Positions 3,958 through 30,785 of a DNA stretch of 64,000 nt are shown here, one piece after another. Position 1 is the first letter of the stretch. Every line of letters begins with the position of its first letter. The position numbers and the translations under genes were made by a program. Source of the DNA: Selenomonadaceae bacterium (lineage in GTDB: Bacteria > Bacillota > Negativicutes > Selenomonadales > Selenomonadaceae); NCBI GenBank assembly GCA_017484005.1, contig JAFUTY010000013.1, forward strand, positions 3,454 to 67,453, read 5' to 3'. The notes beneath the pieces were generated by a model. It was not told the DNA's origin. It searched no databases and saw nothing but the letters and a program-made list of their open reading frames with translations.

Positions 3958-5442
3958 TTATTCTTCGATTGATCTGACTGGTCTGACTTTATATTTGCCG
4001 TTGAATCGATCCGCGTAATATCCATCGTAGGCAAACATTCGATTGATTCCCCAATTGAAACAGCCGTTGAAAGTTTCCGCCGCCAAGATGAACATGTATT
4101 TTTCATCGTAGACATGCGGAAACAGCTTTTGATCAATCCAATTCAGATTTTCAACTTTGCGATCAAATATCGTCGAAAGCTCTTTAATGTTCGGAAGTCT
4201 CCAGCCGCTAAATCCTGCAAGATTATTTTCCGCCAAATATTTTTCAGCATCCGGCGCAGTCATCATCGGCAATTCATCGCGATACCACATGATTTTCAAA
4301 TATTTATCGATCACGACTTCATCGCGAATCTCGTAACGATCTCCAGATTTTTCGGTGAGATTCGAATTTCCACTCACCACGATACAGCCACATTTCTGAT
4401 CTTTTTCGAGCGAAATCGCACATCCATAACCAAAATAGATCGCCCAAGCTCTAGCTGATTTTGTTGGAGTGTGAGATTCGCCTGTCCAATAAAAATCTGA
4501 ATTTGCAATCGCCGAGAATTTTTCGAGAATCGCAGGAGATTTTTTCTGATAATCGACAATCATTCGAAGTTCATCGACTGTCGGAAGTCGCCATGAATTT
4601 TTTCCGTCGCGATTTAGATCCTCAACGAATTTTTGAGCCTCGTCGAATGTGAATTTTTTACCGAGTGCGAGATTTGCGTATCGAATTCCAGTTTTCTCAT
4701 CGACAATTCCAGATTCCGATTCGATCGATCTCACGAGTCGATAGCAGAGCGGCACATTTTTCTCAGCGTAATATCCATCATATCCAAAATTGAAATTTGT
4801 CACCCAGATATAAGTTCCGCCGAATGAATTCACAGCAAGATGTTGCAAAATCGGAGGTTTCAACTTGTCACGCTCAAAACCATCGAAATACCAACTTCCA
4901 TTCGCATGATCCTCGTCGAAAATCGATCCCAACTCCTGCATTGTCGGAAGTCGCCAATCTTTGAATCCTGCCAGCTCAAAATCTTTCAACATCGCGAGAA
5001 TATCTGAATATGACTTGCGATCCGGCTGATCTTTCTGCCACATCAAATTCAAAACGCGATCTGTGATTGTTCCATCGCCATTGTCAACGAATCGATCCCG
5101 CGGAAGTTTTTCACCGCGAACTGCAATCCCGAAACTTTTGGCAGATTTCAATTTTACAGTCGTCGCACCGAGATTCAAATTCAAAATCCAGCCGCAATTT
5201 TCATCGAGTGCATAATTTCCGCCGCACCAATAATCGTCCGGTTTCAAAAATGGAAATTCAGTCTGATTGAACGCCGGATTGATTTGATTGTAATTCACGA
5301 TCGAGCGCAATTCGAATTTCGAGGGAACGCGCCAATCATTGAATCCACCGAATTTTTTTGCGTTGAGATTTGCAACATATTCATCGAATTCGTCGCGAGT
5401 CATAAGTCTCGGAGTGTCAATCGCCCATTCGAGTTTCATCAT
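3958..5442 (-). CDS. Protein with four tandem DUF1566 (Lcl C-terminal / Fibrobacter paralogous domain)-like modules
   Basis: Four repeats of the hallmark DWR(L/V)P(T/S/N)..EL..I(F/V) motif: WRVPSKFELRSIV, WRLPTMQELGSIF, WRLPTVDELRMIV, WRLPNIKELSTIF. No obvious signal peptide. ATGA start/stop overlap with the upstream cupin gene. Confidence 0.7.
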   Translation of the reverse strand: MMKLEWAIDTPRLMTRDEFDEYVANLNAKKFGGFNDWRVPSKFELRSIVNYNQINPAFNQTEFPFLKPDDYWCGGNYALDENCGWILNLNLGATTVKLKSAKSFGIAVRGEKLPRDRFVDNGDGTITDRVLNLMWQKDQPDRKSYSDILAMLKDFELAGFKDWRLPTMQELGSIFDEDHANGSWYFDGFERDKLKPPILQHLAVNSFGGTYIWVTNFNFGYDGYYAEKNVPLCYRLVRSIESESGIVDEKTGIRYANLALGKKFTFDEAQKFVEDLNRDGKNSWRLPTVDELRMIVDYQKKSPAILEKFSAIANSDFYWTGESHTPTKSARAWAIYFGYGCAISLEKDQKCGCIVVSGNSNLTEKSGDRYEIRDEVVIDKYLKIMWYRDELPMMTAPDAEKYLAENNLAGFSGWRLPNIKELSTIFDRKVENLNWIDQKLFPHVYDEKYMFILAAETFNGCFNWGINRMFAYDGYYADRFNGKYKVRPVRSIEE

Positions 5443-5774: not shown

Positions 5775-6043
5775 GATTTTTCGACCTCCTCAAGTTTTTT
5801 GACGATTTCAGGATCTTTCGACCATTCATCCTCGTTGAATTTTCCCCATGCGCGTTGAGTTGGTTTGTCAGAAAATCTGATTCCGCCAGTTCCAACGTTG
5901 TCGAGTGTGTATCCATCGAAGAAAAGATAGACGCGATCTTTCGGAACGTTTGTGATTTCCGCAAAAGTCTCGACAAATTTTTTTGCGAGGATTCTTTTTT
6001 GAGAATCAGACAGCTCGAGAGATTGAATTGTAATTGCAGGCAT
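5771..6043 (-). CDS. Tautomerase (4-oxalocrotonate tautomerase-like) family protein
   Basis: Begins MP(A)ITIQ, with the catalytic Pro directly after Met. 90 aa, beta-alpha-beta-like N-terminal 60 aa. Confidence 0.55.
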   Translation of the reverse strand: MPAITIQSLELSDSQKRILAKKFVETFAEITNVPKDRVYLFFDGYTLDNVGTGGIRFSDKPTQRAWGKFNEDEWSKDPEIVKKLEEVEKS

Positions 6044-14279: not shown

Positions 14280-14327
14280 AAAAAGATCCCCGACAGATCG
14301 CGTTGATCTATCGGGGATCTTTTTTTA
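14280..14327 (-). terminator. Bidirectional rho-independent terminator after the PP2C phosphatase gene
   Basis: AAAAA-GATCCCCGA c AGATC gcgtt GATCT a TCGGGGATC-TTTTTTT. Stems of 9+5 bp. The stop codon of the 14325 gene lies in the T/A tract. Confidence 0.8.
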
Positions 14328-16511
14328 GTTCCGGAATCTCACTGCGAGCATCGTGATATCGTCTGATTGAGCAGCCTCTCCAACATGATCTGAAATATCT
14401 GCACGAACTGCTTTCAATAATGTTTTGAGATCCGTCGTCTTATCGAGGGAATTGATCGTTTTTGACAATCGATCCTCACCATATTGATTGTTCGAAATAT
14501 CCATCGCCTCAGTGACTCCATCGGTGTAGAGATAAAGAATATCGCCGGATTTCAAATCGACTTCCTGCTGCTCAAAATCCATTCCATCCATCATTCCGAG
14601 CACAACATTCTGCTCGACGTTCAAAAACTCGAATCGATCTTCAGATTTTCGATAAAGCATTGGAGGATTGTGTCCGCCGTTGACATAGATGAACTTTCCA
14701 GTTTTCAAATCAAGCATTCCCATGAAAACTGTCACAAACATCATTTCATCATTTCCATCGCAAAGCTGTTGATTCGCGAGAGTCATGACTGCCGAGAGAT
14801 CGTCCGGAGATTTCATCGATAGCGCAAAATTTTTCAACACTGTTTTCGAGATAACCATGAATAGAGCTGCTGGAACTCCTTTGCCACTGACATCCGCGAT
14901 CGTGATCATTAAATGATTTTCATCGAGCATATAAAAATCATAAAAATCACCGCCAACCTCTTTCGCCGCATTCATTCGAGCATAAATTTCAAATCCTTTT
15001 CCGATGTTGAAATCTCGCGGAAGCATGCTGAGCTGGATATTCGTTGCAACATTCAATTCCGTCGCAATTCTTTCTTTATCAGCAGTGACTTTCGTCAGAT
15101 TCGCCATGTAATTTTTGAGTTCCATTGTCATTCCGTTGAAAGTTTCGGCGAGATGCTCGATTTCATTCCCTGTATGAATTTCCAATCTCTTATCAAGATT
15201 CCCACTCGCAATTTCTCTAACTCCATCGGACAAAATCATAATCGGTTTCGTCAATGTTTCAGAGATTTTTCTTCCAATATATGGAGCAATCAGAATCACA
15301 ATGACAAACGCAATAAGCATTAATGAAACCATCATCGTTATTGAACCGTTAAGAGTTTTGACAAATTCGCGAGTGCTATCTTCAATCATATGACGCGTAG
15401 TATCAGCAGGAATTGTGATTTCTGATTCTTCAATCACCACGCCAAAACTCCAGCCTGGACGATTTTCGATTGGAGTATAAGCGAGATAACATGGCTTTCC
15501 ATCGATATTGACTTGAGCGATTCCCTCTTGACCGTCAACCATCTCTTTCGCAACGGCAGAGATAGTCGGCTCTTTGCTATAGAGGAGACTCGGCGCGTCA
15601 TTGATATCATCGACATTGTTTATCGATAGAGAGCCGCCGCCCTCAGTTTTTGGAGAGAAAACAATTCGTCCATTTTGATTAATCAGAAAGCAATATCCAG
15701 TTTCACCGACATCAGTTTTGGTGACAATCTTATTGATATCAGTGAGAATTCGCCCTTCACCAATAATTCCAGCGATTTCGCCATTGTATCCATAATAAGG
15801 CATCGCGCATGAAATCGCCAATCCACGCCCATGACTATCAACAAAAATATTTGAAAAAGCTACATCCTGTTTCTCCATTGCCATCTTATACCATGGACGC
15901 TCGCGATAGTCATTGAACATCGGCACATTGTTTGAATCGACGCGACGCTCTGAAACATCATCGACGGTGATATTGAATCCATTCACTGACGAAACATAAA
16001 TCGCACCGACCGAAGGATTGTTTTCCATGATTCTCATCTGAAAATCTTGAAGATTCGCCGTCAATCCAACTTCTGTAGATAAATTCGCAGGATTGACATC
16101 GGCTCGATATTGAAGTTGAGGGACAATTCTTCCAGCGTTCAAAGCATTAGGAGGATTGACGCGACGCAAAGAATATTCCGAAGGATTCTGCAAAATTGCT
16201 GTCATTTCTTGAGACAGACTTCTAACATCGCGCTCAAAATCTCGAAATATAGTCTCAATCTGATCCGCCCGCTCATTGGCAAGACTCAAAAGTCCATTGA
16301 GAGTCTTAGTTTTCAGAGCTTGAGAGCTACTTTCCGCGGCAAAATTTCCAATATCAACGCCGATTTGAACTGAATCCTTTCGAACGTTATACATCGCGAC
16401 GAGAGAAATCAATCCTGCAACCAATAAAGACACGATGCAACATGCGAGCACCAGATATTGAACCTGCTTTTTGATTCCCATTCTGCCGATTTGTTTAAAC
16501 TTTTCTTTCAT
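14325..16511 (-). CDS. Membrane sensor PP2C phosphatase (SpoIIE/RsbU family) with extracytoplasmic Cache-like domain and HAMP
   Basis: 728 aa. TM helix, about 330 aa periplasmic region, second TM helix, HAMP (PIMILSDGVREIASGNLDKRLE). PP2C/SpoIIE motifs GGDFYDF, DVSGKGVPAALFM, YTDGVTEA, DDITMLAV. Confidence 0.85.
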   Translation of the reverse strand: MKEKFKQIGRMGIKKQVQYLVLACCIVSLLVAGLISLVAMYNVRKDSVQIGVDIGNFAAESSSQALKTKTLNGLLSLANERADQIETIFRDFERDVRSLSQEMTAILQNPSEYSLRRVNPPNALNAGRIVPQLQYRADVNPANLSTEVGLTANLQDFQMRIMENNPSVGAIYVSSVNGFNITVDDVSERRVDSNNVPMFNDYRERPWYKMAMEKQDVAFSNIFVDSHGRGLAISCAMPYYGYNGEIAGIIGEGRILTDINKIVTKTDVGETGYCFLINQNGRIVFSPKTEGGGSLSINNVDDINDAPSLLYSKEPTISAVAKEMVDGQEGIAQVNIDGKPCYLAYTPIENRPGWSFGVVIEESEITIPADTTRHMIEDSTREFVKTLNGSITMMVSLMLIAFVIVILIAPYIGRKISETLTKPIMILSDGVREIASGNLDKRLEIHTGNEIEHLAETFNGMTMELKNYMANLTKVTADKERIATELNVATNIQLSMLPRDFNIGKGFEIYARMNAAKEVGGDFYDFYMLDENHLMITIADVSGKGVPAALFMVISKTVLKNFALSMKSPDDLSAVMTLANQQLCDGNDEMMFVTVFMGMLDLKTGKFIYVNGGHNPPMLYRKSEDRFEFLNVEQNVVLGMMDGMDFEQQEVDLKSGDILYLYTDGVTEAMDISNNQYGEDRLSKTINSLDKTTDLKTLLKAVRADISDHVGEAAQSDDITMLAVRFRN

Positions 16512-17539
16512 TCAACAATAATCCTGCCTTCATAACATTTTTTCACATAGTCACGAATCTTTGAAAAATTTTCAGTCAACGTGAGCAAATCGAAATTAAT
16601 CGAAACTTTTCGCGGATTATGAAGAATCATGACTTCACGTTCAGAACATAACGGCTTGAATCCTGCGAAAAAATATCCCAACTTTTTCAAGATTTGATAA
16701 GCAGTAACAGATTTTGAATCGCTCATATTCAAAAAAATATTGAACGTTTGCAAATCTGAATTGAATTGCGAATGTAACGATTCAACTTTCGAAATCAGAT
16801 CTTCACCGGCTGAATCGATTTCAATCATGCAATTTTGTTGAATCGAATCGTTTGAGAAATTCCAAATCGTTTGACCATCGATCGGTTGAGATTCATGAAT
16901 CAAGTCGAATTTCACTTTCAACGATTTATAAATTTTTTGCGCAAAATCTCGATGTTCTTCCGCGATGTAAATTTTGCCCGCGTCATGCTTAGAAACTTTT
17001 CGAATAGTAAAACCGAGAGTATGTTTCAAATTTTCATCGATTGAGAATGAATGTTGAAAATTTTGCGCGATAATCAATTGAGGAACAAATCCAGTCGGCT
17101 TTAATCCTAGACGCTCCATCAATTTTTCAGTGATATCATGATACAAAACCAATCGACAATAAATCGCAGAAACATTTGGGAGCTTTCGAATTTGAGCGGC
17201 GATATATTTGGAAAAATTTTGGAAAATGTAATAGCGTCGATATTTTTTCAAAACGATTCCAGACGAGATTCCGCACGATGTTTCTCGCGGAAGATTTCGA
17301 GTCAGCGATAGACATCCAATTATCTCGCCATCTGACTTTTCTGCGACGTAAGTGATCATCTTTCCAGATTCCTGCTGATGAATTATGTAATTTGGATCGT
17401 ACAAATCTCGCTTGTGATATTTATCTCCATATTCATCGCGAATCAAATCAATAAAACTTGCGACGTCATTCGATTTAAATTGACGAAATCTCACGTTGAT
17501 CGATTTGCCTTCCGAATTTTTCAGTTCAATAAAATCCAT
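16508..17539 (-). CDS. Hypothetical two-domain protein, weak GNAT-acetyltransferase-like N-terminal domain
   Basis: 343 aa. Overlaps the downstream phosphatase gene by 4 nt. The region ITYVAEKSDGEIIGCLSLTR...VLKKYRRYYIF looks GNAT-like but lacks a clear Q/RxxGxG motif. Confidence 0.35.
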   Translation of the reverse strand: MDFIELKNSEGKSINVRFRQFKSNDVASFIDLIRDEYGDKYHKRDLYDPNYIIHQQESGKMITYVAEKSDGEIIGCLSLTRNLPRETSCGISSGIVLKKYRRYYIFQNFSKYIAAQIRKLPNVSAIYCRLVLYHDITEKLMERLGLKPTGFVPQLIIAQNFQHSFSIDENLKHTLGFTIRKVSKHDAGKIYIAEEHRDFAQKIYKSLKVKFDLIHESQPIDGQTIWNFSNDSIQQNCMIEIDSAGEDLISKVESLHSQFNSDLQTFNIFLNMSDSKSVTAYQILKKLGYFFAGFKPLCSEREVMILHNPRKVSINFDLLTLTENFSKIRDYVKKCYEGRIIVE

Positions 17540-17542
17540 CGA

Positions 17543-19297
17543 TTATTTCTCCTTCCGATTTATAACCACCGCAAGATTATTGATTCCAAGCGTACTTTTA
17601 TAATGAATTTCTTCTGCCGCTTGAGAAATCATCGAAATTCCGAGCGCATCACTCATTGCAAATTCATCCGGATCGATCTCTTTCATTCGTTCGTAATAAT
17701 CGATTGGATTGAACGTCTTTCCACCGTTGCGAATTCGAAGAATGATCGTCGATTCGTCAATCAAAATTCGCACATCGATCCTTTCATCTGCAACGGAATC
17801 GAAACAATGATCCTTGATACTCACAAGCATCTCTTCCATTGACAATTGAATCAGCATGACATCTTTCGAATCGAGTTGATTTTGCTCACAGAATTCGACG
17901 ATTTTTTTGACGCTATCGACAATCGAATCGAGATTTGATTTGACAGTGAAAGAGATAAATCTTCCATCGCGTTCAGATTTCAAATCGAGGAGCAGAATTT
18001 TGGATCGATCATGAAAATCGAGTACGAATTCGCAATAACTCTGATAAAGTTCCAAACCAAAGATCAGAATTGCGAGAGTTCCAACTGACGCAATGATAAA
18101 TGAATACCAAATTCCGTTGATACCAATTTCATTCGACAGAAAATATGCAGGGATCAATAGAAGTAAAAATCCTCGAGAGATCGTGATGAAATTTGCGAGT
18201 CTAGCGAATTTTGCGGATTGATAATAGCTCGTCAGAATCATGCAAATCGTTGCGGGAATCAAACTCAACGAGAAAATTCGAATCGCCTCGGAAGTTTGAA
18301 ATTGTTCGATAGAATCAGTAATTCCAAAGAGATCGCAAATTCGATCTGGAAAAATGCAAATCAAAATGACGCTCGGAATCAGAATCACGAGCGAAAGTTT
18401 GTGAGAATAAGATTCGACGTATCGAAGACTCACATTGTCTTTTTCTTGCGAAAACATCCCGATGAATGCTGAAGTTGCTTGAGAAATTCCGGAGAGAATA
18501 GTATTTGACAGAGCCTCAATAGTTTTCACGACAGAAAAAATCACGAGCCCAACATGTCCCGCGACAACTAGAAGTAGATTGTTCATAATAATGAATCTGA
18601 CGAAGTTGAGAATCTGATTTAGCATCGACGGCGTTCCAAATTTGATTAATGCTTGCGAATGATTCATAAATTTTCGCGTGAATTTAAATGAATCAGTCAA
18701 TAAATACATACCGATTAGAACAGTCAACATCGATGAAAAAACAATTCCGAGCGCAATTCCCTCGAATCCGAAACCGAATCCAATGCAAAAAATGAAATCG
18801 AAAACTGCATTTTCAATCATCATTCCGACGAATAGAATAATCATTGCGCGAAGTTGTCCCGAGAGTTTCATGAAGTGATAAGGCATATAAAATAGCGATG
18901 TGAAAACTCCGCCGAGTGTGTAAATTGTCGCGTAAGATTCAGACATCGAATAAATTTTGTCTGTGCAACCGAGGATATAGAGGAGTTCGCGTTGAAATAT
19001 CAACATCAGAATCGTTGCGAAAATCGATAAACCAATCGCGAATGCAAATGAACATGTGAATCTTGAATTTGCTTCAGATTTATCGTCGCGCCCGAGTGAA
19101 TGTGATGTGATAATTGCGCCGCCGATTCCAATCAATGCACCGATCGCCGCGTAAACTGAATAAATCGGTGAGACGACACTCATCGCCGCGAGTCCATCTG
19201 ATCCGAAAAATTTTCCAGTGAGAATTGAATTCACGACGATGCATAATTGAACTCCCGCCATTGACAGCGACGCGGAAATTGCATGTTTATTGAACAA
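17543..19297 (-). CDS. MATE-family transporter fused to a C-terminal degenerate RsbW-like HATPase_c domain
   Basis: 584 aa. About 440 aa form a 12-helix hydrophobic MATE-like body. The C-terminal 135 aa (SMEEMLVSIKDH ... IRNGGKTFNP ... DALGISMI) are colinear with the kinase domain at 11045-12043, but the N-box Asn and the G1/G2 residues are altered. Confidence 0.65.
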   Translation of the reverse strand: MFNKHAISASLSMAGVQLCIVVNSILTGKFFGSDGLAAMSVVSPIYSVYAAIGALIGIGGAIITSHSLGRDDKSEANSRFTCSFAFAIGLSIFATILMLIFQRELLYILGCTDKIYSMSESYATIYTLGGVFTSLFYMPYHFMKLSGQLRAMIILFVGMMIENAVFDFIFCIGFGFGFEGIALGIVFSSMLTVLIGMYLLTDSFKFTRKFMNHSQALIKFGTPSMLNQILNFVRFIIMNNLLLVVAGHVGLVIFSVVKTIEALSNTILSGISQATSAFIGMFSQEKDNVSLRYVESYSHKLSLVILIPSVILICIFPDRICDLFGITDSIEQFQTSEAIRIFSLSLIPATICMILTSYYQSAKFARLANFITISRGFLLLLIPAYFLSNEIGINGIWYSFIIASVGTLAILIFGLELYQSYCEFVLDFHDRSKILLLDLKSERDGRFISFTVKSNLDSIVDSVKKIVEFCEQNQLDSKDVMLIQLSMEEMLVSIKDHCFDSVADERIDVRILIDESTIILRIRNGGKTFNPIDYYERMKEIDPDEFAMSDALGISMISQAAEEIHYKSTLGINNLAVVINRKEK

Positions 19298-19426
19298 ATT
19301 TCGAAGAAGTCTTTGATCGGCGATTAATTCATTCGTTTCAATCGACTCCTTTCAGAAATCCAAATTTTAATGGATTGAATGAAATCGATTGATAAATTTT
19401 CCTTTATTGATAGAGGAGGAATTTTC

Positions 19427-19760
19427 ATGCCAAATTTAAACTTTGTCGGCAAATCGAAAGTCGTCAATCATCATCGCGACGTGTCATTCAGATTTCTCGA
19501 GCGTCAATATGGATTGAGCGAGAACATGATCATTCATGGCGATAATCTACTCGCATTGAGATCTCTACTTGCAACACATCGCGGAAAGATCAAATGCATT
19601 TATATCGATCCTCCATATAACACTGGAAACGAAAATTGGATCTATAATGACAACGTCAACGATCCAGAGATTCGATCTTGGATTGGAAAAGTTGTTGGTG
19701 ATGAAGAAACTGATCTGAATCGTCATGATAAATGGCTATGCATGATGTATCCTCGACTTC
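19427..19760 (+). repeat. Direct repeat copy A1 (5' block of Mod paralog 1), near-identical to 22082-22415
   Basis: Exact shared runs verified by eye: 44 nt (19457-19500 = 22112-22155) and 54 nt (19622-19675 = 22277-22330). Confidence 0.9.
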
Positions 19761-20914
19761 GATTGTTACATGAATTATTAAGTGATGACGGTGCGATCTT
19801 TATTTCGATCGATGATAATGAAGTTGCAAATTTGAAATTGATCTGCAACGAGATTTTTGGAATCAATAATTTCATCGTGATGTTTACATGGCGAAGAAGA
19901 TCTGGAGCGAATGATGCTCTGAATAATGTCTCGCTCGATCATGAATATGTTGTCTGCTATTCAAAATCGAAAAAATTCTCGATGAATGGAGTCACTAAAA
20001 ATTTTGAGAAATATTCGAATCCAGATAATGATCCTCGAGGAGCATGGGTTCGAGGCGATTTAACTTGTGGAAAAACTGCAGATCAGCGACCGAATCTTTT
20101 CTATCCAATTACAGATCCAAAAACAGGAATCACTTATCAATGCAATCCAGATCATGTTTGGAGATTCGAGAGAAATCGAATGCAACAGTTGATCGAGACT
20201 GGAAAAGTTCTATTCCCTGCAGATGGAAATGGTCGCCCTGCATATAAGAGACATCAAGCGGAAGTCAGATCTGAAACCAAACCATTCAGCTCAATCATCG
20301 AAACAAAATTGAATTCAGCGGCGACTCGAGAATTGCGAGATATTTTTGGAAAGCAGGTTTTCGATTATCCAAAGACAGTTGATTTGATTCGACAGATCGT
20401 TTATCAATCAACCGATCCCGATTCGATTGTGCTCGATGCATTTGCAGGATCTGGAACGACAGCTCAATCAGTTATCGAGTTAAATCGAGAAGATCATGGA
20501 AATCGAAAATTCATTTTGATCGAGTTAATGGATTATTGCGAATCGATAACTGCTGAAAGAGTTCGTCGAATCAATGGAGATTTTTCTTTCTATGAATTAG
20601 GAGATCCAATTTTCATCGAGGACGAGATCAATCCAGATCTATCGAGAGATTTATTCCGTCGATATTTATATTTCTCGGAAACAAAAAAAGAGATCCCACC
20701 AATGAATCCCGATGAACCTACATTACTCGGAATCAATGATGGAATCGGTTATCACTTAATCGATGGAGATTTGAATTTCAATTCTCTCGCACAGATCAAA
20801 ACTCGATCAAATTCATATGTAATATATGCAGAGTCATGCACGATTTCTCAAGAGACTCGCGATCAATTCAAAATCATTTTTAGAAAAATTCCGCGCGATG
20901 TGAGGAGAATCTAA
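19427..20914 (+). CDS. Beta-class N6-adenine/N4-cytosine DNA methyltransferase, Type III Mod-like, paralog 1 (unique central TRD)
   Basis: Motif IV DPPYNTGNE lies upstream of motif I DAFAGSGTTAQ (beta-class order). The start is set at the ATG at 19427, preceded by GGAGGA; the ORF-track start at 19379 adds 16 unlikely residues. The TAA stop overlaps the next ATG by 1 nt. Confidence 0.9.
   Translation: MPNLNFVGKSKVVNHHRDVSFRFLERQYGLSENMIIHGDNLLALRSLLATHRGKIKCIYIDPPYNTGNENWIYNDNVNDPEIRSWIGKVVGDEETDLNRHDKWLCMMYPRLRLLHELLSDDGAIFISIDDNEVANLKLICNEIFGINNFIVMFTWRRRSGANDALNNVSLDHEYVVCYSKSKKFSMNGVTKNFEKYSNPDNDPRGAWVRGDLTCGKTADQRPNLFYPITDPKTGITYQCNPDHVWRFERNRMQQLIETGKVLFPADGNGRPAYKRHQAEVRSETKPFSSIIETKLNSAATRELRDIFGKQVFDYPKTVDLIRQIVYQSTDPDSIVLDAFAGSGTTAQSVIELNREDHGNRKFILIELMDYCESITAERVRRINGDFSFYELGDPIFIEDEINPDLSRDLFRRYLYFSETKKEIPPMNPDEPTLLGINDGIGYHLIDGDLNFNSLAQIKTRSNSYVIYAESCTISQETRDQFKIIFRKIPRDVRRI
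20411..20914 (+). repeat. Direct repeat copy B1 (3' block of Mod paralog 1), highly similar to 23072-23575
   Basis: Includes a 50 nt exact run (20667-20716 = 23328-23377). The first ~190 nt (motif I block) also recur in paralog 2 at about 21880-22077. Confidence 0.85.
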
Positions 20915-22077
20915 TGCTAAATTTTATCGGCAAGGATCAAGTTTCAAATCTCGAAGTAGAATATCGAAAGCTCAATCGAATCTATGGCGACAGCGATAAT
21001 CGAATCATTCACGCCGATAATTTGCTCGCGCTGAAATCTCTGATTCCAATGTATTGCGGCGAAATCAAATTGATATACATCGATCCGCCGTATAACACTG
21101 GAAACGAGGGCTGGATATATAATGACAACGCCAAAGATCCAAATCTCGCGCGATGGATTTCTCAAGTTGTCGGGAATGCAAAACTCGATCGACACGATAA
21201 ATGGCTATGCATGATGTATCCGCGACTTCGATTAATGCATGAACTTTTATCGGAAGATGGATCGCTGTGGATTTCGATTGACGATGATGAAGTCGATTAT
21301 CTGAAAGTGATTTGCGATGAGATTTTTGATCGGAAGAATTTTGTGGCACATATAATTTGGGAGAAAAAATATGCTCCTCAAAACGATGCTCGATGGCTGT
21401 CTGATAATCATGATTTCATTTTGGTTTATGCAAAGGATAAATCTCGATGGCGACCGAATCCATTGCCGCGAACTTCCGAAATGGATTCGCGATACAAAAA
21501 TCCGGACAATGATCCTCGCGGAGTTTGGAAATCGACAGATCTATCGTCGAGAGGATCTAGATTTCAATTCGCGATTCAATCTCCCACCGGAAAAATTTTC
21601 TATCCTCCAGAGGGACGTCAATGGGCTTTCGAAAAATCAAGACTCGATGAATTGCTCAAAGATAATCGAATTTGGTTTGGAAAAACTGGAAATCGAGCTC
21701 CCGCATTGAAATCATTTTTATCGGAAGTCAAACAGGGATCAGTTGCAAAAACAATCTGGACTCGCGAAGAAGTCGGTGATAATCAAGAGGCGAAACAGGA
21801 AATCAAGCGATTCAATTTCGATGAAGTATTTACAACTCCAAAACCGACGCGACTTATCAAACGAATCTTGCAACTCGCGTCGAATCGAGATTCAATTGTG
21901 TTAGATAGTTTTGCGGGATCTGGAACGACTGCTCAAGCTGTTATCGAATTGAATCGAGAGGATTCTGGATCTCGAAAATTCATCTTGATTGAATCCATGG
22001 ATTATTGCGAATCGATAACAGCCGAGCGAATTCGTCGAATCGGTGGAGATTTTTCATTCTATGAATTGGAGGATTGA
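20914..22077 (+). CDS. Beta-class DNA methyltransferase, Mod-like, paralog 2 (short form lacking the C-terminal tail)
   Basis: DPPYNTGNE and DSFAGSGTTAQ are present. The central region is homologous to paralog 3. The protein ends at ...FSFYELED, where paralogs 1 and 3 continue for about 115 aa. Confidence 0.9.
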   Translation: MLNFIGKDQVSNLEVEYRKLNRIYGDSDNRIIHADNLLALKSLIPMYCGEIKLIYIDPPYNTGNEGWIYNDNAKDPNLARWISQVVGNAKLDRHDKWLCMMYPRLRLMHELLSEDGSLWISIDDDEVDYLKVICDEIFDRKNFVAHIIWEKKYAPQNDARWLSDNHDFILVYAKDKSRWRPNPLPRTSEMDSRYKNPDNDPRGVWKSTDLSSRGSRFQFAIQSPTGKIFYPPEGRQWAFEKSRLDELLKDNRIWFGKTGNRAPALKSFLSEVKQGSVAKTIWTREEVGDNQEAKQEIKRFNFDEVFTTPKPTRLIKRILQLASNRDSIVLDSFAGSGTTAQAVIELNREDSGSRKFILIESMDYCESITAERIRRIGGDFSFYELED

Positions 22078-22081
22078 TCGA

Positions 22082-22415
22082 ATGCCAAATCTGAATTTCG
22101 TTGGAAAAAATAAAGTCGTCAATCATCATCGCGACGTGTCATTCAGATTTCTCGAACGTCAATATGGATCGAGCGAGAATATGATCATTCACGGCGATAA
22201 TCTGTTGGCACTTCGATCTCTCAACGCGATGTATCGAGGAAAGATCAAATGTATCTATATCGATCCACCTTACAATACTGGAAACGAAAATTGGATCTAT
22301 AATGACAACGTCAACGATCCAGAGATTCGAAGTTGGATTGGTAAAGTTGTTGGCGATGAAGAAACAGATCTGAATCGTCACGATAAATGGTTATGCATGA
22401 TGTATCCTCGATTGA
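22082..22415 (+). repeat. Direct repeat copy A2 (5' block of Mod paralog 3)
   Basis: See copy A1. The offset is 2655 bp. Confidence 0.9.
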
Positions 22416-23575
22416 GATTGTTGCAGGAGTTGTTGAGTGATGACGGCTCGATTTGGATTTCGATTGATGATGTTGAGATTTCAAATTTGAGAAAGATTTG
22501 TGATGAGATTTTTGGCTCGAATAATTTTGTGGCGCATGTGATTTGGGAGAAAAAATATTCGCCGCAGAATGATGCTCGATGGCTGTCTGATAATCACGAT
22601 TTCATTTTGGTTTATGCAAAGAATAAATCGATCTGGCGACCGAATTTATTGCCGAGGACTGCAGAGATGGATGCTCGATACAAAAATCCAGACAATGATC
22701 CTCGAGGAGCATGGACATCTGGAGCTTTGCAAGCTAAAAGTGGAACTGATAATTATGTTTATGAAATCACTTCTCCGACTGGAAAAAAATTTCTACCACC
22801 GACTGGCACATTCTGGAGATTTTCGAAAGATAGATTCGAAGAATTGATCGCAGATAATCGAATTTGGTTCGGTGAAGATGGAAACAATGTTCCTCGATTG
22901 AAAAGATTTTTATCAGATGTAAAACAAGGATCAGTTTCAAAAACTATTTGGAATCGAGACGAAGTTGGAGATAATCAAGAAGCAAATCGAGAGTTCAAGA
23001 GTTTCAACTTCGATCAATTCTTTGCAACTCCAAAACCTACTCGATTGATTCGCAAAATTCTTCAACTTGCATCAGATCCCGACTCAATAATTCTCGATGC
23101 ATTTGCAGGATCTGGAACGACTGCTCAATCAGTTATCGAGTTGAATCGAGAGGATTCTGGATCTCGAAAATTCATTTTGATCGAATCCATGGATTATTGC
23201 GAATCGATAACAGCGGAACGAGTTCGTCGAGTTGGCGGAGATTTCTCGTTCTATGAATTAGGAGATCCAATTTTTATCGAGGATCAATTGAATCCAAATT
23301 TATCGAGAGATCAATTTCGAAGATATCTATATTTCTCGGAAACAAAAAAAGAGATCCCACCAATGAATCCCGATGAATCAACTCTTCTCGGAATTCATGA
23401 TGGAATCGCTTATCACTTAATCGATGGAGAATTGAATCTCGATTCGCTCGCACAGATCAAAACTCGATCAAAAAGCTACATTATATATAGTGATTTGTGC
23501 CGGATCGATCAATCGGATCTCGATCGATTCAAAATCTATTTCAGAAAAATTCCGCGCGATGTTCGTCGAATGTAG
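22082..23575 (+). CDS. Beta-class DNA methyltransferase, Mod-like, paralog 3 (ends like paralog 1, centre like paralog 2)
   Basis: DPPYNTGNE and DAFAGSGTTAQ. The start is set at the ATG at 22082 (MPNLNFVGKNKVVNHH, colinear with paralog 1). The ORF-track start at 22043 would overlap paralog 2. Confidence 0.9.
   Translation: MPNLNFVGKNKVVNHHRDVSFRFLERQYGSSENMIIHGDNLLALRSLNAMYRGKIKCIYIDPPYNTGNENWIYNDNVNDPEIRSWIGKVVGDEETDLNRHDKWLCMMYPRLRLLQELLSDDGSIWISIDDVEISNLRKICDEIFGSNNFVAHVIWEKKYSPQNDARWLSDNHDFILVYAKNKSIWRPNLLPRTAEMDARYKNPDNDPRGAWTSGALQAKSGTDNYVYEITSPTGKKFLPPTGTFWRFSKDRFEELIADNRIWFGEDGNNVPRLKRFLSDVKQGSVSKTIWNRDEVGDNQEANREFKSFNFDQFFATPKPTRLIRKILQLASDPDSIILDAFAGSGTTAQSVIELNREDSGSRKFILIESMDYCESITAERVRRVGGDFSFYELGDPIFIEDQLNPNLSRDQFRRYLYFSETKKEIPPMNPDESTLLGIHDGIAYHLIDGELNLDSLAQIKTRSKSYIIYSDLCRIDQSDLDRFKIYFRKIPRDVRRM
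23072..23575 (+). repeat. Direct repeat copy B2 (3' block of Mod paralog 3)
   Basis: See copy B1. It also shares 35 nt and 32 nt exact runs with paralog 2 around 21948-22018. Confidence 0.85.
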
Positions 23576-23587
23576 GAGGTTGAAGTC

Positions 23588-26215
23588 ATGGAATTGAAGC
23601 CGTTTCAGCGTGAAATCATTGGAGATTTGAAACTCTATCTCGATTTGCTCGATCAAATGAACAATCTATCTTTTGCGTGGGAAGTTTTTCATTCGCGGAA
23701 GAAGAATCGCGACGCGCTGAATTATCAAAACACAATCGAAGGCGTGCCGCATGTCTGTGTCAAAGTTCCAACTGGCGGTGGAAAAACATTTATCGCGGCG
23801 TCTGCACTCAAAACAATTTTCGATGGAATCCCTCAGCTCGATACTCGATTCGTCATTTGGCTCGTTCCGTCAGATTCAATTCTCGAGCAGACAATTCGAA
23901 ATTTATCAAACATCGAGCATCCATATCGTCAAAAACTCGAGCAGGATTTCAATGGCAACGTTCAAATTTTTACGAAAGATGAAATGCTCCTCGGACAAAA
24001 TTTTTCACCGAGCACCGTCGATTCAAATTCATTATCGATCGGAATTTTGAGTTATAGTTCATTGCGAATCGATTCGAAGAAGAAAGATTCTCGCAAAATT
24101 TTTCAACCGAATGGAAATCTGCAGACGTTCGATGAATTTGGCGAGGAGAATTTTTTGGAAAATACTCCAGAATCTGCATTGATTCAGATAATTCGTCGAT
24201 TCAAACCAGTCGTGATAGTCGATGAATCTCACAACGCAACATCAACTTTGAGCGTCGAAATGCTATCAAATCTGAATCCGAGTTTCATTCTCGATCTCAC
24301 TGCAACTCCTCGAAAGAATAGCAACATCTTATCAATCGCAAGTCCTCTCGAATTGAAAAACGAAAGCATGGTTAAAATTCCAGTGATCGTTTACAATCGT
24401 CCCTCGACTGAAGTTGTGATCGAATATGCAATTGCACTTCAGAAAAGTCTCGAGGAGTTTGCAAAATCTGAATCGCAATATATTCGTCCAATCGTATTAT
24501 TCCAAGCTCAACCGAATATGAAATCGAAGGAATCGGAAACATTCGAGAAGATTCGCGAGAAATTGATCGCTAAAAAAATTCCAAGAGATCAAATCGCGAT
24601 CAAAACTTCAAACATCAATGAAATCGCTGGAATCGATCTGATGTCTGAAAAATGTCCGATTCGATTCATCATCACAGTCAACGCGCTCAAAGAAGGTTGG
24701 GATTGTCCTTTTGCATATGTCTTAGCATCGATCGCAAATCGAAATTCAGAAATCGATGTTGAGCAGATCGTCGGAAGAATTTTGAGACAGCCGAACGCGA
24801 CTCGATGCAAGAATAACGCGCTGAATTGCTCATATGTTTTCACGAGTTCTGATGAATTCCGTGCGACTCTCGAAAAAATTGTGAATGGATTAAACAACGC
24901 TGGATTTTCTCGAAACGATTGTCGCGTGACAGATTCCGAGGATCAATTTGAGGATCAATTCGAAGATCAGATCGAGATTCAACATGAAATTCCAAAAATC
25001 GAGACTCAAATCGAGAATCCAATTGAGACTCAATCTGAAATCGAAATTCCGCCCGAATCTGAAATCGTCGAGGATAAAATTGAAGATCAAATCGAGAATC
25101 CAGTTGAAGATCAAACTGAATCTAAAATTGATGATCAAGTTGTCGAGGAAATCAAAACTCCAATCAATGTTGAGGAGATCATTCGGCAGGCTGATGAATT
25201 AAATCGCGAGTTCAATTCAAAACCTCGAATCGAGACTCGTGATAATTCTCGACAAATTGGAATCCGTCCAGAATTTCGAGAGGAGATCGAGCATTTCAAA
25301 CTTCCGCAATTCACAATTCAAACACCGAGTCTCGCACTGTTTTCGAGCGGCGATAAATTGCTCCAGCCGACAGATTTGCTCCGAGAATTTTCACTCGAAT
25401 CCGCCGATGCAAAAATCGATTTGAGTTTCGATGCGAACATGTATCAAATCGATTTGGATAAAGGTAGCGATGGAATTCCAGCGTATCGATTGGTTTCGCA
25501 AGATGCTAAGAAATTTTTTGTCGATTATCTCAAAATTCCAAAGGATAGACGTCGCTCGAGATTTCTCGGTGAAGTCATGAAAAATCTTGATCGCGATGAT
25601 GAAATTGGATTGAATTCGATTCAAAATTATGTGCGTCGAGTGATTGATTCGATGGATGAGGATTTGATCGGAAAATATGAACAGATTCCATGGATATTTG
25701 CAAGAAAAATCCGCGATAAAATTATTTCATTGAAACGAGATTATTGCGAAAATAGATTCTATGATTTGATTGGGCGCGAAATGATTCATTGCGAAGATCA
25801 ATTTGAATTTCCAACGAGCATTTCTCTCAAAATGACAAAACCGATCAAACGATCACTGTATGAATTGGAGCAAGATGATCTGAACAATTTCGAGCGAGAA
25901 GCGGTGCGAGCGTTAATTGAGATTCCGAATGTTAAATGGTGGCATCGAAACATTTCGCGGCGAGGATTTTGTTTGAATGGATTCGAGCGTCATTATCCAG
26001 ATTTCATAATTCGACTTGAATCTGGAAAAACGATCTTACTCGAGACGAAGGGAGATCATCTCGATGGATCTGATTCGCAGAAAAAATTGAAACTCGGAAC
26101 GAAATGGGCAAATCTGAGTGGCGAGGATTTTCGATATTTCATGGTCTTTGGAAAACAGTCGATAGATGATTCGCTGACGCTCGATCAATTTTTGAATCAA
26201 ATTAGATCTCTTTGA
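23588..26215 (+). CDS. Type III restriction Res-like subunit: SF2 helicase/ATPase with C-terminal PD-(D/E)xK nuclease
   Basis: 875 aa. Motif I VPTGGGKTFIAA, motif II VIVDESHN, motif III DLTATP, motif VI QIVGRILRQP. C-terminal YPDFIIRLESGKTILLETKG (PD...ExK). GGAGG RBS. Located 12 nt after the last mod gene. Confidence 0.88.
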   Translation: MELKPFQREIIGDLKLYLDLLDQMNNLSFAWEVFHSRKKNRDALNYQNTIEGVPHVCVKVPTGGGKTFIAASALKTIFDGIPQLDTRFVIWLVPSDSILEQTIRNLSNIEHPYRQKLEQDFNGNVQIFTKDEMLLGQNFSPSTVDSNSLSIGILSYSSLRIDSKKKDSRKIFQPNGNLQTFDEFGEENFLENTPESALIQIIRRFKPVVIVDESHNATSTLSVEMLSNLNPSFILDLTATPRKNSNILSIASPLELKNESMVKIPVIVYNRPSTEVVIEYAIALQKSLEEFAKSESQYIRPIVLFQAQPNMKSKESETFEKIREKLIAKKIPRDQIAIKTSNINEIAGIDLMSEKCPIRFIITVNALKEGWDCPFAYVLASIANRNSEIDVEQIVGRILRQPNATRCKNNALNCSYVFTSSDEFRATLEKIVNGLNNAGFSRNDCRVTDSEDQFEDQFEDQIEIQHEIPKIETQIENPIETQSEIEIPPESEIVEDKIEDQIENPVEDQTESKIDDQVVEEIKTPINVEEIIRQADELNREFNSKPRIETRDNSRQIGIRPEFREEIEHFKLPQFTIQTPSLALFSSGDKLLQPTDLLREFSLESADAKIDLSFDANMYQIDLDKGSDGIPAYRLVSQDAKKFFVDYLKIPKDRRRSRFLGEVMKNLDRDDEIGLNSIQNYVRRVIDSMDEDLIGKYEQIPWIFARKIRDKIISLKRDYCENRFYDLIGREMIHCEDQFEFPTSISLKMTKPIKRSLYELEQDDLNNFEREAVRALIEIPNVKWWHRNISRRGFCLNGFERHYPDFIIRLESGKTILLETKGDHLDGSDSQKKLKLGTKWANLSGEDFRYFMVFGKQSIDDSLTLDQFLNQIRSL
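24932..25153 (+). repeat. Degenerate acidic low-complexity repeat inside res (E/D-Q-I/F-E units)
   Basis: Encodes DSEDQFEDQFEDQIEIQHEIPKIETQIENPIETQSEIEIPPESEIVEDKIEDQIENPVEDQTESKIDDQVVEEIK. The nucleotide level shows reiterated gaRgatcaaWtYga units. Confidence 0.8.
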
Positions 26216-26227
26216 GGAGTCGATCTC

Positions 26228-26548
26228 ATGAAAAAATTTTTGATCGCGCTAATTCTTTTCATCATTCCGAGCATCACTCACGCTCAAGATGTTTGGATTT
26301 ATTCTCACGACGAAATCGATTCATACATCATCGAGGAGTCAATCGTCGCGGAATCTGATTCAGTGACAGTCACGACGAAAGATGTTCAAGATGGAAGATT
26401 ATTGCGAACGATTCATTGGAAATTCGAAAATGTTTTTGATCAATGGAGATATGAAACTTCAGAAATGGATGGATTTCATACGACGGTTGTAATTGAAGAT
26501 GGATTATCTGGAAAAATTTTGCGATTCTGTTTAGATCATTCAAACTGA
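26228..26548 (+). CDS. Small secreted hypothetical protein
   Basis: 106 aa. Signal peptide MKKFLIALILFIIPSITHA/QD. GAGGAG RBS. Starts 12 nt after the res stop, and a terminator follows directly. Confidence 0.65.
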   Translation: MKKFLIALILFIIPSITHAQDVWIYSHDEIDSYIIEESIVAESDSVTVTTKDVQDGRLLRTIHWKFENVFDQWRYETSEMDGFHTTVVIEDGLSGKILRFCLDHSN

Positions 26549-26558
26549 ATCTAAAAAA

Positions 26559-26593
26559 ATCCCTTCCGAAAAAATCGGGAGGGATCTTTTTTT
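26559..26593 (+). terminator. Rho-independent terminator closing the mod-mod-mod-res-orf operon
   Basis: ATCCCTTCCG-aaaaaat-CGGGAGGGAT (10 bp including one G.U) followed by CTTTTTTT and preceded by an A7 tract. Confidence 0.85.
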
Positions 26594-26686
26594 ATTTGTG
26601 AGTGAAATCTATGAAAGGATTTCGACGTCAAAAATCAAATTAATCGAGCGAAATTATGTATCGAGAAATTGAAGGGGGGATTCATC

Positions 26687-28384
26687 TTGAACTCATTCAC
26701 AATCAAACAAAAATTGTATCTAGCTTTTGCACTGTTGATTCTGATTTTCATCGCGACAGGAATTTATGCGGAGCGAAGTTTGAATCGAATCAACGCGGGA
26801 GCAACTCAAATCGCGACGGAACATTTGCAGGGAGTCATCGAGACGACGGAACACGCTCGAACACTGGCAAAATATCGACAGAACGAATTTGCAGTTCTGA
26901 CAGCGGGATCGTTATCGTTCAAGGTTCATGCGGCGCAGCAGGCTGATCGACTCGCGCAGCAGATCGATATCGTTTTTGAATCAGCCGCGTCGCAAGTCAA
27001 AGGCGATGCAGTTGCAGATTTTCAAGACGTTCGAACTGCATGGAACAATTACAGAAAAAATTCCGAACGTGTTTTCCAGCTCGTGAAAGAGAATCAAATT
27101 TTCGAGGCGACTCGATTGGTTGAATCTAGCGATCAAGATTACATGTACATCGAATCGAAACTGCAGAAATTGCTCGATGGGCGCAAGGATTTCATTCATC
27201 AAGAAAATGTTTATGGCGAACAGCAGTATCAATCGATGCAAATCATTTTGATATCTGCGATTGGTGCGGCTGTATTGCTAGCACTTTTAATCGCTGGAGC
27301 ATTGGCAAAATCGATTTCGAAACCTATCAATAACATGATGGATGCGGCTCGAAAAATATCTCAAGGCGATTTGAGTGTCGAGATGAAAGCGATTAGCAAT
27401 GACGAACTCGGCGAATTGACTCAAGTTTATGGCGAGACAGTAAAAAATCTTCGAGAGTTGATTCGCGATATTCAATCGACGGCGGAAGATGTTTCGAATT
27501 TTGCATCGCAATTGACAGAGAATGCAAGTCAATCGGCAGTTGCAACTCAACAAGTCGCAACATCAATCGGCAACGTCGCGGAAAATGCAAATCATCAAGG
27601 CGAGGCAGTCAATCGATCGACGAATTCGATTAAAGAGATGTCAGAAATGCTTCGTGGATTCGAGGAGAAAGCAGTTGCATCGTCAAAAGCGGCAGGATCT
27701 GTCGAAGAAATCGCTGAATCTGGAAAAACTACAATCGCGCAGGCAGTAGATCAAATGTCTGTCATTGCGGATTCAGTCATGAGTTCGGCGCGAGTGATTC
27801 AACAGCTTGCGGAGCGATCTGACGAAATCGGACAGATTGTCGAAACGATCTCCGGAATTTCTGAACAGACAAATCTTTTAGCTCTCAACGCGGCGATTGA
27901 AGCGGCTCGAGCAGGAGAAGCTGGTCGAGGATTTGCAGTTGTCGCCGATGAAGTTAGAAAATTGGCTGAAGGATCTGGCGAGGCGGCTCAAAAAATCGCT
28001 GAAATGATCGAGATGATTCAAACTGATGTCAAAGCGGCAGTTCAACAGATGAATCAGGGAACAGATGTCGTTGAAGGTGGAAAGACTGCAGTTGCAGACG
28101 CTGGAAAGTCATTCGATAACATCGCGGAAGCTGTTGAAAATTTAGCTCAACATGCCGCGGCGATTCTCGAGGATGCAAAAAAATCTTCGGATCAAGTCGA
28201 ATCTTTGGTCGTCGTCATGGAATCGCTCGAGAAAAATGGAAAAGATGTTGCGGCTGAAACTGAATCAGTCTCCGCGGCGACAGAGGAACAATCGGCGTCA
28301 ATCGATGAAGTTGCAAGTGCGAGCCGTCGACTCTCGGAATTGGCTCAAGAACTTTTGAACTCGACCGCCAAATTCAAAATCTGA
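26687..28384 (+). CDS. Methyl-accepting chemotaxis protein (4-helix-bundle sensor, HAMP, MA domain)
   Basis: Highly conserved signalling hairpin [55 protein letters not shown]. The start is proposed at the TTG at 26687, 6 nt after GGGGGGA (the ORF track starts at 26669). Confidence 0.93.
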
Positions 28385-30160: not shown

Positions 30161-30785
30161 TTGGATTCTGGATTTTCTTTTTCCAACTCGATGCCCGCGG
30201 TGTCATGAATTCGTTTCGAAGTCTAAAATGTGGCATGAAAAATGTCTGCTCGAGACGATTTTGATTCATTCGACGAAAATCGAATCGAGTCTCGCGATTT
30301 CAAAATATCGAGGTGGGACTCGAGAATTGATCACCGATTTAAAATTCAATGGAAGAAAATCGAGAGTCAAAGTTATCGAAATACTCCTCGAGCGAGCGTT
30401 TGAATCGAGTAACATTCTTCAAAAATTCATTTCAAAACCGAATTTGATCGCTGTGCCAGTTCCAATTCATCCCGAACGCGAAAAACTCCGTGGATTCAAC
30501 CAGGCTGATTTGATTTTTCGAAACTGGCTGAAACTCCACGGAGTCGAGATGCAATGTTTATTGAAGCGAGTTGTTGAGACTGCACCATCATTCAAATTGA
30601 ATGCTGAAGAGCGCATGAAAAATATTTCTGGAGCATTTGAACTCGATGGCGATGTGAATGGAAAATCGATTTTGCTTGTCGATGATATTTTGACGACAGG
30701 GACGACAGTCATGGAATGCTCGCGAATTTTGAAACTTGGAGGAGCTAAATCGATTCGAATTTTGGTTTTGGCGTCAGATTATTGA
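30147..30785 (+). CDS. ComF-family phosphoribosyltransferase-fold protein (ComFC-like)
   Basis: N-terminal zinc-finger-like FPTRCPRC...C. C-terminal PRTase motif ILLVDDILTTGTT. Overlaps the upstream radical SAM gene by 14 nt. Confidence 0.7.
   Translation: MKIIDWILDFLFPTRCPRCHEFVSKSKMWHEKCLLETILIHSTKIESSLAISKYRGGTRELITDLKFNGRKSRVKVIEILLERAFESSNILQKFISKPNLIAVPVPIHPEREKLRGFNQADLIFRNWLKLHGVEMQCLLKRVVETAPSFKLNAEERMKNISGAFELDGDVNGKSILLVDDILTTGTTVMECSRILKLGGAKSIRILVLASDY

Follow-up and report, generated by a model that had tools for sequence, protein, structure and literature searches.

Type III restriction-modification loci in which several methyltransferase (mod) genes stand beside a single restriction (res) gene have been described in Mollicutes. 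The Mbo45ORF167P locus of Mycoplasma bovis PG45 carries three mod genes and one res, with a similar cluster in M. pulmonis (bioRxiv 10.64898/2026.05.01.722158), and strains of M. agalactiae have either two tandem mod genes (strain 5632, together with res) or one (PMC9465063). Duplication followed by acquisition of a target recognition domain (TRD) was proposed by Atack et al., 2018 (PMC5909438). In Helicobacter pylori, homologous recombination in the conserved flanks replaces TRDs, and trees of the TRD and non-TRD parts disagree (Furuta and Kobayashi, 2012; PMC3467074); donors and recipients there are genes at separate loci, and the authors found no unequal recombination among tandem Type III genes (PMC3467074). 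Diverse modA alleles have been documented in Haemophilus and Neisseria (PMC1557822). Both Type III loci with several mod genes and the exchange of TRDs via conserved flanks are already described (Mycoplasma, H. pylori, Haemophilus). Here we analyse a locus in a 64,000-nt stretch of contig JAFUTY010000013.1 from a Selenomonadaceae bacterium (hereafter 'the window'), in which three mod paralogues lie beside one res gene. As in the Mollicutes loci, several mod paralogues accompany a single res, conserved 5' and 3' parts surround a variable central TRD, and the number of mod genes varies by strain. With a probability of roughly 70%, we read the three genes as a mod multigene family whose constant ends are converted and whose TRD centres are replaced between strains over evolutionary time, with no dedicated switch.

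The four genes lie on the forward strand, as do all features below unless stated otherwise: mod1 at 19427–20914 (495 residues from a conserved MPNLNF start), mod2 at 20914–22077 (387 residues), mod3 at 22082–23575 (497 residues) and res at 23588–26215 (875 residues). They are spaced by −1, 4 and 12 nt, the start of mod2 overlapping the stop of mod1 (TAATG), and each has its own Shine-Dalgarno sequence, with a single terminator for all. On this layout, 19427–26215 is predicted to be one operon, mod1-mod2-mod3-res, followed by a small open reading frame (ORF) and the terminator, and the region reads as a gut bacterium's operon for Type III restriction-modification. All three Mods match Pfam PF01555, and their best PADLOC model is the Type III methyltransferase PDLC03644, which Mod1 and Mod3 cover end to end (Mod1 residues 1–494 against profile positions 1–541 of 542) and Mod2 only to position 396 of 542; Mod1 and Mod3 are full-length, and Mod2 is without the C-terminal domain of ~110 residues. 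The catalytic motifs are intact in all three Mods, with DPPY at residues 57–61 and FAGSGTT at 333–341 (61 and 339 in Mod1, 57 and 333 in Mod2), and their order, in which the TRD follows motif IV (DPPY) and precedes motif I (FxGxG), is that of a beta-class amino-methyltransferase. By sequence, the nearest PDB structures are the Mods of H. pylori (6k0w; E = 4e-70), EcoP15I (4zcf; E = 1.5e-52) and Mbo45V (7dsu), and an AlphaFold 2 model of Mod3 (predicted local distance difference test score, pLDDT, 83.6) was aligned by Foldseek to 4zcf_A over 592 columns (E = 6e-32). Res matches Pfam ResIII and PADLOC REase_III (E = 1.2e-76) and has the motifs of a superfamily 2 helicase with a C-terminal PD-(D/E)xK nuclease: Walker A GGGKT at residue 63, DESH at 212 and PD...ETK at 804–821. 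Between its helicase and nuclease parts, at 24937–25141, there is an acidic, imperfectly repeated insert (EDQFEDQFEDQIE...IENPIETQSEIE...) with periods of 12, 24 and 27 nt.

The similarity among the three mod genes is arranged in blocks, whose borders were placed by likelihood change-points for mod1 versus mod3 and for mod2 versus mod3. Along mod1, identity to mod3 is 88% at 19427–19756, 74% at 19757–19873, 50% at 19874–20413, 87% at 20414–20809 and 69% at 20810–20911. The 5' constant block (330 nt; mod3 partner at 22082–22411) encodes the N-terminal region together with methyltransferase motif IV onwards, and the 3' constant block (396 nt; mod3 partner at 23075–23470) encodes the motif I region and most of the C-terminal domain. 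Between them lies the mod1-specific centre with its TRD (19874–20413). The centre of mod3 resembles that of mod2: the mod2 segment at 21337–21522 is 87% identical to 22523–22708, and the motif I segment at 21910–22020 is 95% identical to 23102–23212, the two copies being closer to each other in this genome than the copies of this segment are in L001, the orthologous locus on a 128-kb contig from another sample, which has the same flanking genes and the same three mods and res. Within these otherwise similar centres, mod2 and mod3 each have a unique TRD core of about 120 nt, at 21523–21639 (117 nt) and 22709–22831, respectively. The ends of mod3 are therefore mod1-like and its central scaffold mod2-like, around a TRD core of its own.

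A sequence-only reading made before this analysis had already recognised most of this pattern. Its 5' repeats (19427–19760 and 22082–22415, with exact runs of 44 nt at 19457/22112 and 54 nt at 19622/22277), its 3' repeats (20411–20914 and 23072–23575, with an exact run of 50 nt at 20667/23328) and its exact runs of 35 nt (21949/23141) and 32 nt (21991/23183) between the motif I parts of mod2 and mod3 were all recovered, and a repeat finder returned the direct repeat families that it described. The spacing that it gave as about 2.65 kb corresponds to offsets of 2655 and 2661 nt, both multiples of 3, so that the mod1 and mod3 copies are in frame with each other. The alignment and breakpoint mapping that it proposed as a check gave the block structure above in place of evenly spread similarity. 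Two of its wordings need correction. 'Near-identical' is too strong a term for the repeats, which are 86.8% (5') and 82.9% (3') identical at these coordinates and 83–88% overall, and the centres of mod1 and mod3, which it called unrelated, are 33% identical as protein (BLASTP E = 6e-27). Its description of mod3 as mod1 ends with a mod2 core holds except at the TRD core, where 22709–22831 is only 45% identical to 21523–21639 of mod2.

The similarity of the constant blocks appears to go beyond protein constraint. Synonymous divergence (dS) between mod1 and mod3 is 0.47–0.65 in the shared blocks (0.65 in the 5' block), and in the centre it is above 1.2 or saturated. Between orthologues of the window and L001, dS is 0.02–0.16 in the unique centre of mod1, 0.05–0.27 in the mod2 blocks and 0.22–0.53 in the shared blocks. 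The shared parts have diverged faster between strains than the unique parts, and this is the pattern expected of exchange among paralogues. When mod1 and mod3 from the window and from L001 were compared as four sequences, 30 sites of the 3' block followed orthology and 14 grouped the mod1 of the window with the mod3 of L001. Ten of these 14 are consecutive informative sites forming a conversion tract at 20551–20587, where window mod1 equals L001 mod3 and window mod3 equals L001 mod1 (permutation p = 5e-5); the tract is visible in the protein as RRING versus RRVGG. The pairwise homoplasy index (PHI) test for the 3' block gave p <= 0.0005.

Wider comparisons gave the same picture of an exchange hot spot in the 3' block. 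Among six genes compared, the nearest neighbour in the motif I region switches every 30 nt, with mod2 among the neighbours. When nine full-length alleles, drawn from six samples, were compared, the unique centres behaved clonally (identity was often 100%), and along the 3' block the nearest neighbour jumps every 30–60 nt among mod1, mod3 and solitary alleles, the last being mod genes outside the array. Exchange is also seen between the window and L002, a second assembly of the window's own BioSample: these differ at 15 sites in 17.5 kb, five of which lie in mod1 at 20722–20782, and at four of the five the alternative state is that of mod3. The four single-nucleotide polymorphisms (SNPs) at 20722–20748 form a mod3-like patch in which L002 has the mod3 state at 4/4. 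The same comparison contains two further tight SNP clusters outside the mod genes, at 16974–16988 and 30695–30725, which suggests co-existing strains or patchy recombination in general. RecA-dependent exchange in E. coli needs a minimum of roughly 25 nt of identity. We infer that the exchange is ordinary homologous recombination, because the exact runs of 44–54 nt exceed this length, and RecA dependence is inferred likewise.

The TRD cores have a different history. Between the window and L001, the flanks of mod3 are 95–100% identical and the TRD core is 47–63% identical, with breaks after NPDNDPRG and before VKQG. Three TRD-core alleles of mod3 were found: that of the window, that of L001 and a third, related core shared by L086, L087 and L091, so that the core of the window is replaced in all four of these loci. 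The window type recurs in a distant solitary mod gene from a bioreactor metagenome (L084), whose TRD core is 76–81% identical to that of window mod3 and whose other parts are 55–67% identical. For mod3 this amounts to several TRD alleles of one gene within conserved 5' and 3' regions, and to the incongruence between TRD and flanks that marks TRD movement of the H. pylori type. Neither mod1 nor mod2 was the donor of the replaced core, which was imported from outside the array. The sequence-only reading had expected chimeric mod alleles with swapped TRDs; the TRD differences between strains come instead from outside the array, and the TRD cores of the three paralogues were never found swapped with each other. 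The mod2 TRD core showed no allele replacement in any sampled strain: against L001, L086 and L087, mod2 is 97–100% identical in most 30-codon blocks and 90–94% identical across codons 180–240. The position of mod1 has a different centre in L089, a locus from a further sample. A TAA nonsense codon at 870–900 of L089 (GSR-stop instead of GSRK) splits the gene at this position, where the centre is of a third kind.

Comparison of related loci, also suggested by the sequence-only reading, showed the three-gene order in L001 and L089, from two other samples, and in L002. L089 keeps the three genes despite only ~83% nucleotide identity to the window, and the contig of L087 also reaches the 3' end of mod1. 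One arrangement differs. In L086 (8.3 kb; flank 93% identical to the window), the MatE gene is followed by the mod1 upstream region and the first five codons of mod1, fused in frame to mod2, and then by mod3. The junction joins equivalent start-proximal codons of mod1 and mod2 at ~16 nt of imperfect homology, outside the long repeats. Homology of ~16 nt is too short for the junction to be an assembly join. As three genes are still present in the more distant L089, the arrangement is more simply read as a deletion of mod1: L086 would have lost mod1 by an in-frame mod1/mod2 fusion. Recombination between the long repeats would be expected to leave one chimeric mod gene followed by res, and such a mod1/mod3 fusion was not seen in any contig fetched. 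Of the RecA-mediated conversion or deletion foreseen in the sequence-only reading, then, conversion is borne out by patches among mod1, mod3 and mod2, and deletion by the two-gene L086 with its in-frame chimeric junction, but not by the mod1/mod3 product.

The constant blocks also occur away from the array. Solitary mod genes without res are found at 8001–9497 of L083, from the window's sample, and at 6001–7494 of L093, from the sample of L001; they carry the 5' and 3' blocks of mod1 and mod3 (80–98% nucleotide identity in most sub-windows, 0.73–0.79 in a few) on either side of unrelated centres. After masking of the mod genes, the tetranucleotide composition of these two contigs correlates with that of the window at r = 0.986–0.988, compared with at most 0.71 for unrelated loci of similar G+C. 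An IS605-type TnpB gene lies 2 kb downstream of the solitary mod gene in L083. Three contigs of 1.6–2.4 kb show further arrangements, which are unverified and are given as leads only. At the MatE locus of L092 (1–1655), a mod1 allele closes with a solitary-type terminus and is followed by a terminator, with mod2 absent; L090 (1–2062) has a mod1 allele and then mod2, placed 13 nt behind the DUF711 gene that in L083 stands ahead of the solitary copy; and L091 (2.4 kb) has mod2-mod3 followed at 1743–2313 by a PIN-domain toxin gene and a 61-aa gene on the opposite strand instead of res, the last 50 nt of its mod3 being of the solitary type. L090 and L092 could be rearrangements between loci. The idea that a single reciprocal exchange between mod1 and the solitary copy produced both was considered and rejected, as both contigs carry the mod1 centre.

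It could be argued that no recombination has taken place, and that the end blocks are alike through purifying selection on catalytic and interface residues or through assembly cross-talk: the conserved motifs are indeed encoded in the end blocks, and all of the data come from short-read assemblies. We consider this highly improbable. Synonymous divergence is itself low in the blocks, the exact runs of 44–54 nt compare with about 27 nt expected at 87% identity (our own estimate), and the phylogenetic incongruence is clustered. As for the assemblies, the structure is the same on contigs of 341 kb and 128 kb that come from different samples, the k-mer sizes to which the contig names point (k141, k87) exceed the length of the exact repeats, and the L086 junction has only its ~16 nt of homology. 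Several points nevertheless count against our interpretation of a converted multigene family. The 5' block gave PHI values of p = 0.03 with nine sequences and 0.9 with four, showing little sign of recent exchange, and its conservation may come partly from purifying selection. Every comparison genome is a short-read metagenome assembly, and L089–L092 are contigs of 1.6–2.7 kb that are possibly chimeric. The solitary copies appear to lie in the same genome as the array judging only by sample and composition. That the locus has three active specificities is an assumption, and the part assigned below to the C-terminal domain, which has no significant structural match to the Res-binding domain of EcoP15I, would follow only from its position.

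A further possibility is that the locus undergoes programmed, high-frequency specificity switching, in which the direct repeats continually yield chimeric alleles or one- and two-gene versions, in the manner of hsdS shufflons. The exact runs of 44–54 nt are above the RecA minimum and the repeats are in frame; L002 and the window, from the same sample, differ by a conversion patch, and arrangement variants exist among samples. The apparatus of a switch is nevertheless missing. No pairs of inverted repeats of at least 25 nt were found in 17000–27000, no recombinase within about 8 kb of the locus, and no silent cassettes. Tandem Repeats Finder detected no simple-sequence tracts in 19000–23600; homopolymers there do not exceed A7, and (TA)4 is the sole short repeat. 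The A7 tracts, at 20683 and 23344 (equivalent positions of the C-terminal domain in mod1 and mod3) and at 22783 (in the mod3 TRD), are too short for phase-variable tracts. The repeats are only 83–88% identical, and as direct repeats they can only convert or delete, such deletions being irreversible. Two other samples, including one with ~83% identity, keep the order of the three genes, and the L087 contig extends to the 3' end of mod1; neither a mod1/mod3 fusion nor a swap of TRD cores among the three genes was seen. We therefore judge programmed switching to be improbable. The sequence-only reading was right that the repeats are direct rather than inverted and that no recombinase gene is nearby, but its proposal of a Type III analogue of hsdS shuffling is not supported, as no inverted repeats, nearby recombinase or silent cassettes were found and the recombination looks evolutionary.

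The gene identities, block structure, conversion tracts, TRD replacement and single deletion variant described above would be brought together if the direct repeats were the constant regions of a small mod multigene family, the 5' block encoding the N-terminal region and first half of the methyltransferase and the 3' block the motif I half and C-terminal domain. The constant regions would stay alike because the paralogues repeatedly swap short patches by homologous gene conversion, which would act both within the array and between it and solitary mod genes located elsewhere, most strongly in the 3' block. The TRD-bearing centres would stay distinct, with occasional replacement by allelic or horizontal exchange in which the constant regions serve as recombination arms, and rare unequal events would remove or relocate whole genes. 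Res acts only through Mod (bioRxiv 10.64898/2026.05.01.722158), and since a Type III Res makes no cut that a Mod has not directed, the loss or change of a mod gene would be tolerated. The net effect would be that several interchangeable specificity subunits serve one nuclease. The constant ends would be kept since they form the dimer interface and the Res contact, under selection for compatibility with Res.

The tail-less Mod2 raises the question of how the subunits share their work. In EcoP15I, the C-terminal domain of the DNA-reading protomer contacts Res extensively, and that of the methylating protomer is exposed (PMC4490356). By position, and by analogy with EcoP15I, the tail of Mod1 and Mod3 would contact Res, and Mod2 would not recruit Res alone. 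The analogy can be extended to a hard-wired division of labour, in which mod2-mod3-res is the core of the system and encodes a Mod2-Mod3 heterodimer, Mod3 reading DNA and docking Res like ModA and Mod2 methylating like ModB, with mod1 as a facultative extra specificity. Only the C-terminal domain of ModA contacts Res in EcoP15I, that of ModB being solvent exposed (PMC4490356), and Mod2 lacks the domain altogether; mod2 and mod3 are adjacent in every variant; the mod2 TRD has no allele replacement, against three TRD-core alleles for mod3; and mod1 is absent, interrupted or elsewhere in some strains. However, Mod2 and Mod3 both keep DPPY and FAGSGTT, and therefore neither looks specialised, and the closest tail-less relative (P0026, L085) is solitary. 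Nor does the C-terminal domain have a demonstrable structural match to that of EcoP15I. In Mod3 the domain comprises residues 385–497 (23234–23572), and modelled alone (pLDDT 82.5) it gave no PDB match at E <= 0.001, with 4zcf outside the top 50. Res as a search anchor found no relative in species-representative genomes, and in Joint Genome Institute (JGI) metagenomes only one 2.6-kb fragment, so architectures were surveyed by Mod profile instead. Across species-representative genomes, 0 of 80 loci of the same Mod family have more than one mod, and none has such a pair, so that comparative support is absent; res is detectable at 69 of the 80. On balance we think such a division of labour unlikely. 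A broader version, in which our reading of a converted multigene family is combined with a Mod-dimer asymmetry split over two genes, is likewise doubtful. Mod2 would then be a permanent methylating partner, DNA would be read and Res docked by the tailed Mods (Mod3, Mod1, possibly the solitary copies as well) as interchangeable subunits, and concerted evolution of the end blocks would keep them compatible.

An EcoP15I fold (Mod residues 539–644) was tried for the Mod C-terminal domain and not adopted; the domain-only model gave no significant PDB match, and it is the full-length model that aligns with 4zcf_A. The best matches of the isolated domain are weak, to the nuclease-like folds of EndoMS/NucS and YaeQ (probability <= 0.47), and are not interpreted.

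The remaining features of the locus concern its borders and neighbours. Upstream of mod1, the intergenic region at 19298–19426 contains the Shine-Dalgarno sequence GAGGAGG and is the presumed promoter region of the operon; it is kept in L001, L086 and L092, and a strong sigma-70 consensus was not found in it. Downstream of res and coupled to it, a 106-aa ORF (orf106, 26228–26548) is conserved in L001 and has no match in Pfam, NCBIfam or PADLOC. It is followed at 26559–26595 by an intrinsic-terminator-like hairpin, an 11-bp stem and then a T run, at which the operon would end. The neighbours of the locus encode MatE, a SpoIIE phosphatase, a chemoreceptor, a binding protein, a radical SAM protein and CobS. 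On the reverse strand, the ORF at 17543–19297 contains a MatE transporter domain and a HATPase_c_2 (anti-sigma-kinase-like) domain, an unusual pairing, and a Cache-HAMP-SpoIIE phosphatase (14325–16511) adjoins it. Also on the reverse strand are an autotransporter beta-domain protein (824–3256) and a protein with four Lcl_C (DUF1566-like) repeats (3958–5442), both of which fit a diderm host.

The locus reveals no new kind of switching mechanism. Its interest lies in a Type III system that would hold several specificities on one nuclease outside the small-genome pathogens studied so far, and in a route of specificity turnover in which gene conversion homogenises the constant ends, TRD cores come in from outside, and genes are gained or lost without self-killing. 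It also provides an instance in which tandem Type III mod genes have recombined unequally, something not found in the H. pylori study. With a naturally tail-less Mod next to full-length ones, the roles of the Mod-dimer protomers, and that of the C-terminal domain in Res recruitment, become directly testable, and the locus may serve best as a natural system for studying how Mod docks with Res and how the protomers of the Mod dimer divide their work.

Set against the described systems, the locus combines familiar elements in a different setting. It shares with EcoP15I (Mod2Res1; PDB 4ZCF) the Mod fold and motif order and a Res composed of a helicase part and a PD..ExK nuclease; EcoP15I, however, has a single mod gene, the window Mods are ~150 aa shorter, and their C-terminal domain is not demonstrably of the same fold. 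The invertible Type I hsdS systems (M. pulmonis hsd, pneumococcal SpnD39III type) resemble it in that specificity modules with conserved segments serve one nuclease, but they have inverted repeats, partial silent genes, usually a site-specific recombinase, and reversible high-frequency switching, none of which is a feature of the window locus. Phasevarions are defined by a simple-sequence repeat tract in the mod frame or promoter; the window mods have no such tract, although they share the multiple TRD alleles. As in H. pylori, TRDs are replaced through conserved flanks and TRD and non-TRD parts are incongruent; unlike H. pylori, the paralogues are tandem, the recombination arms extend over hundreds of nt at 83–88% identity, and one unequal event (L086) is seen. 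The Mollicutes mod genes each have a GA/AG tract and are thought to be phase-variable, whereas the window mods are without one; moreover, one paralogue here has no C-terminal domain, all genes are translationally coupled on one strand, and the host is a diderm, Firmicute-like gut bacterium of a different phylum. What is new here, then, is a multi-mod array free of repeat tracts, with a tail-less paralogue, in a different phylum, and with measurable concerted evolution and one unequal event.

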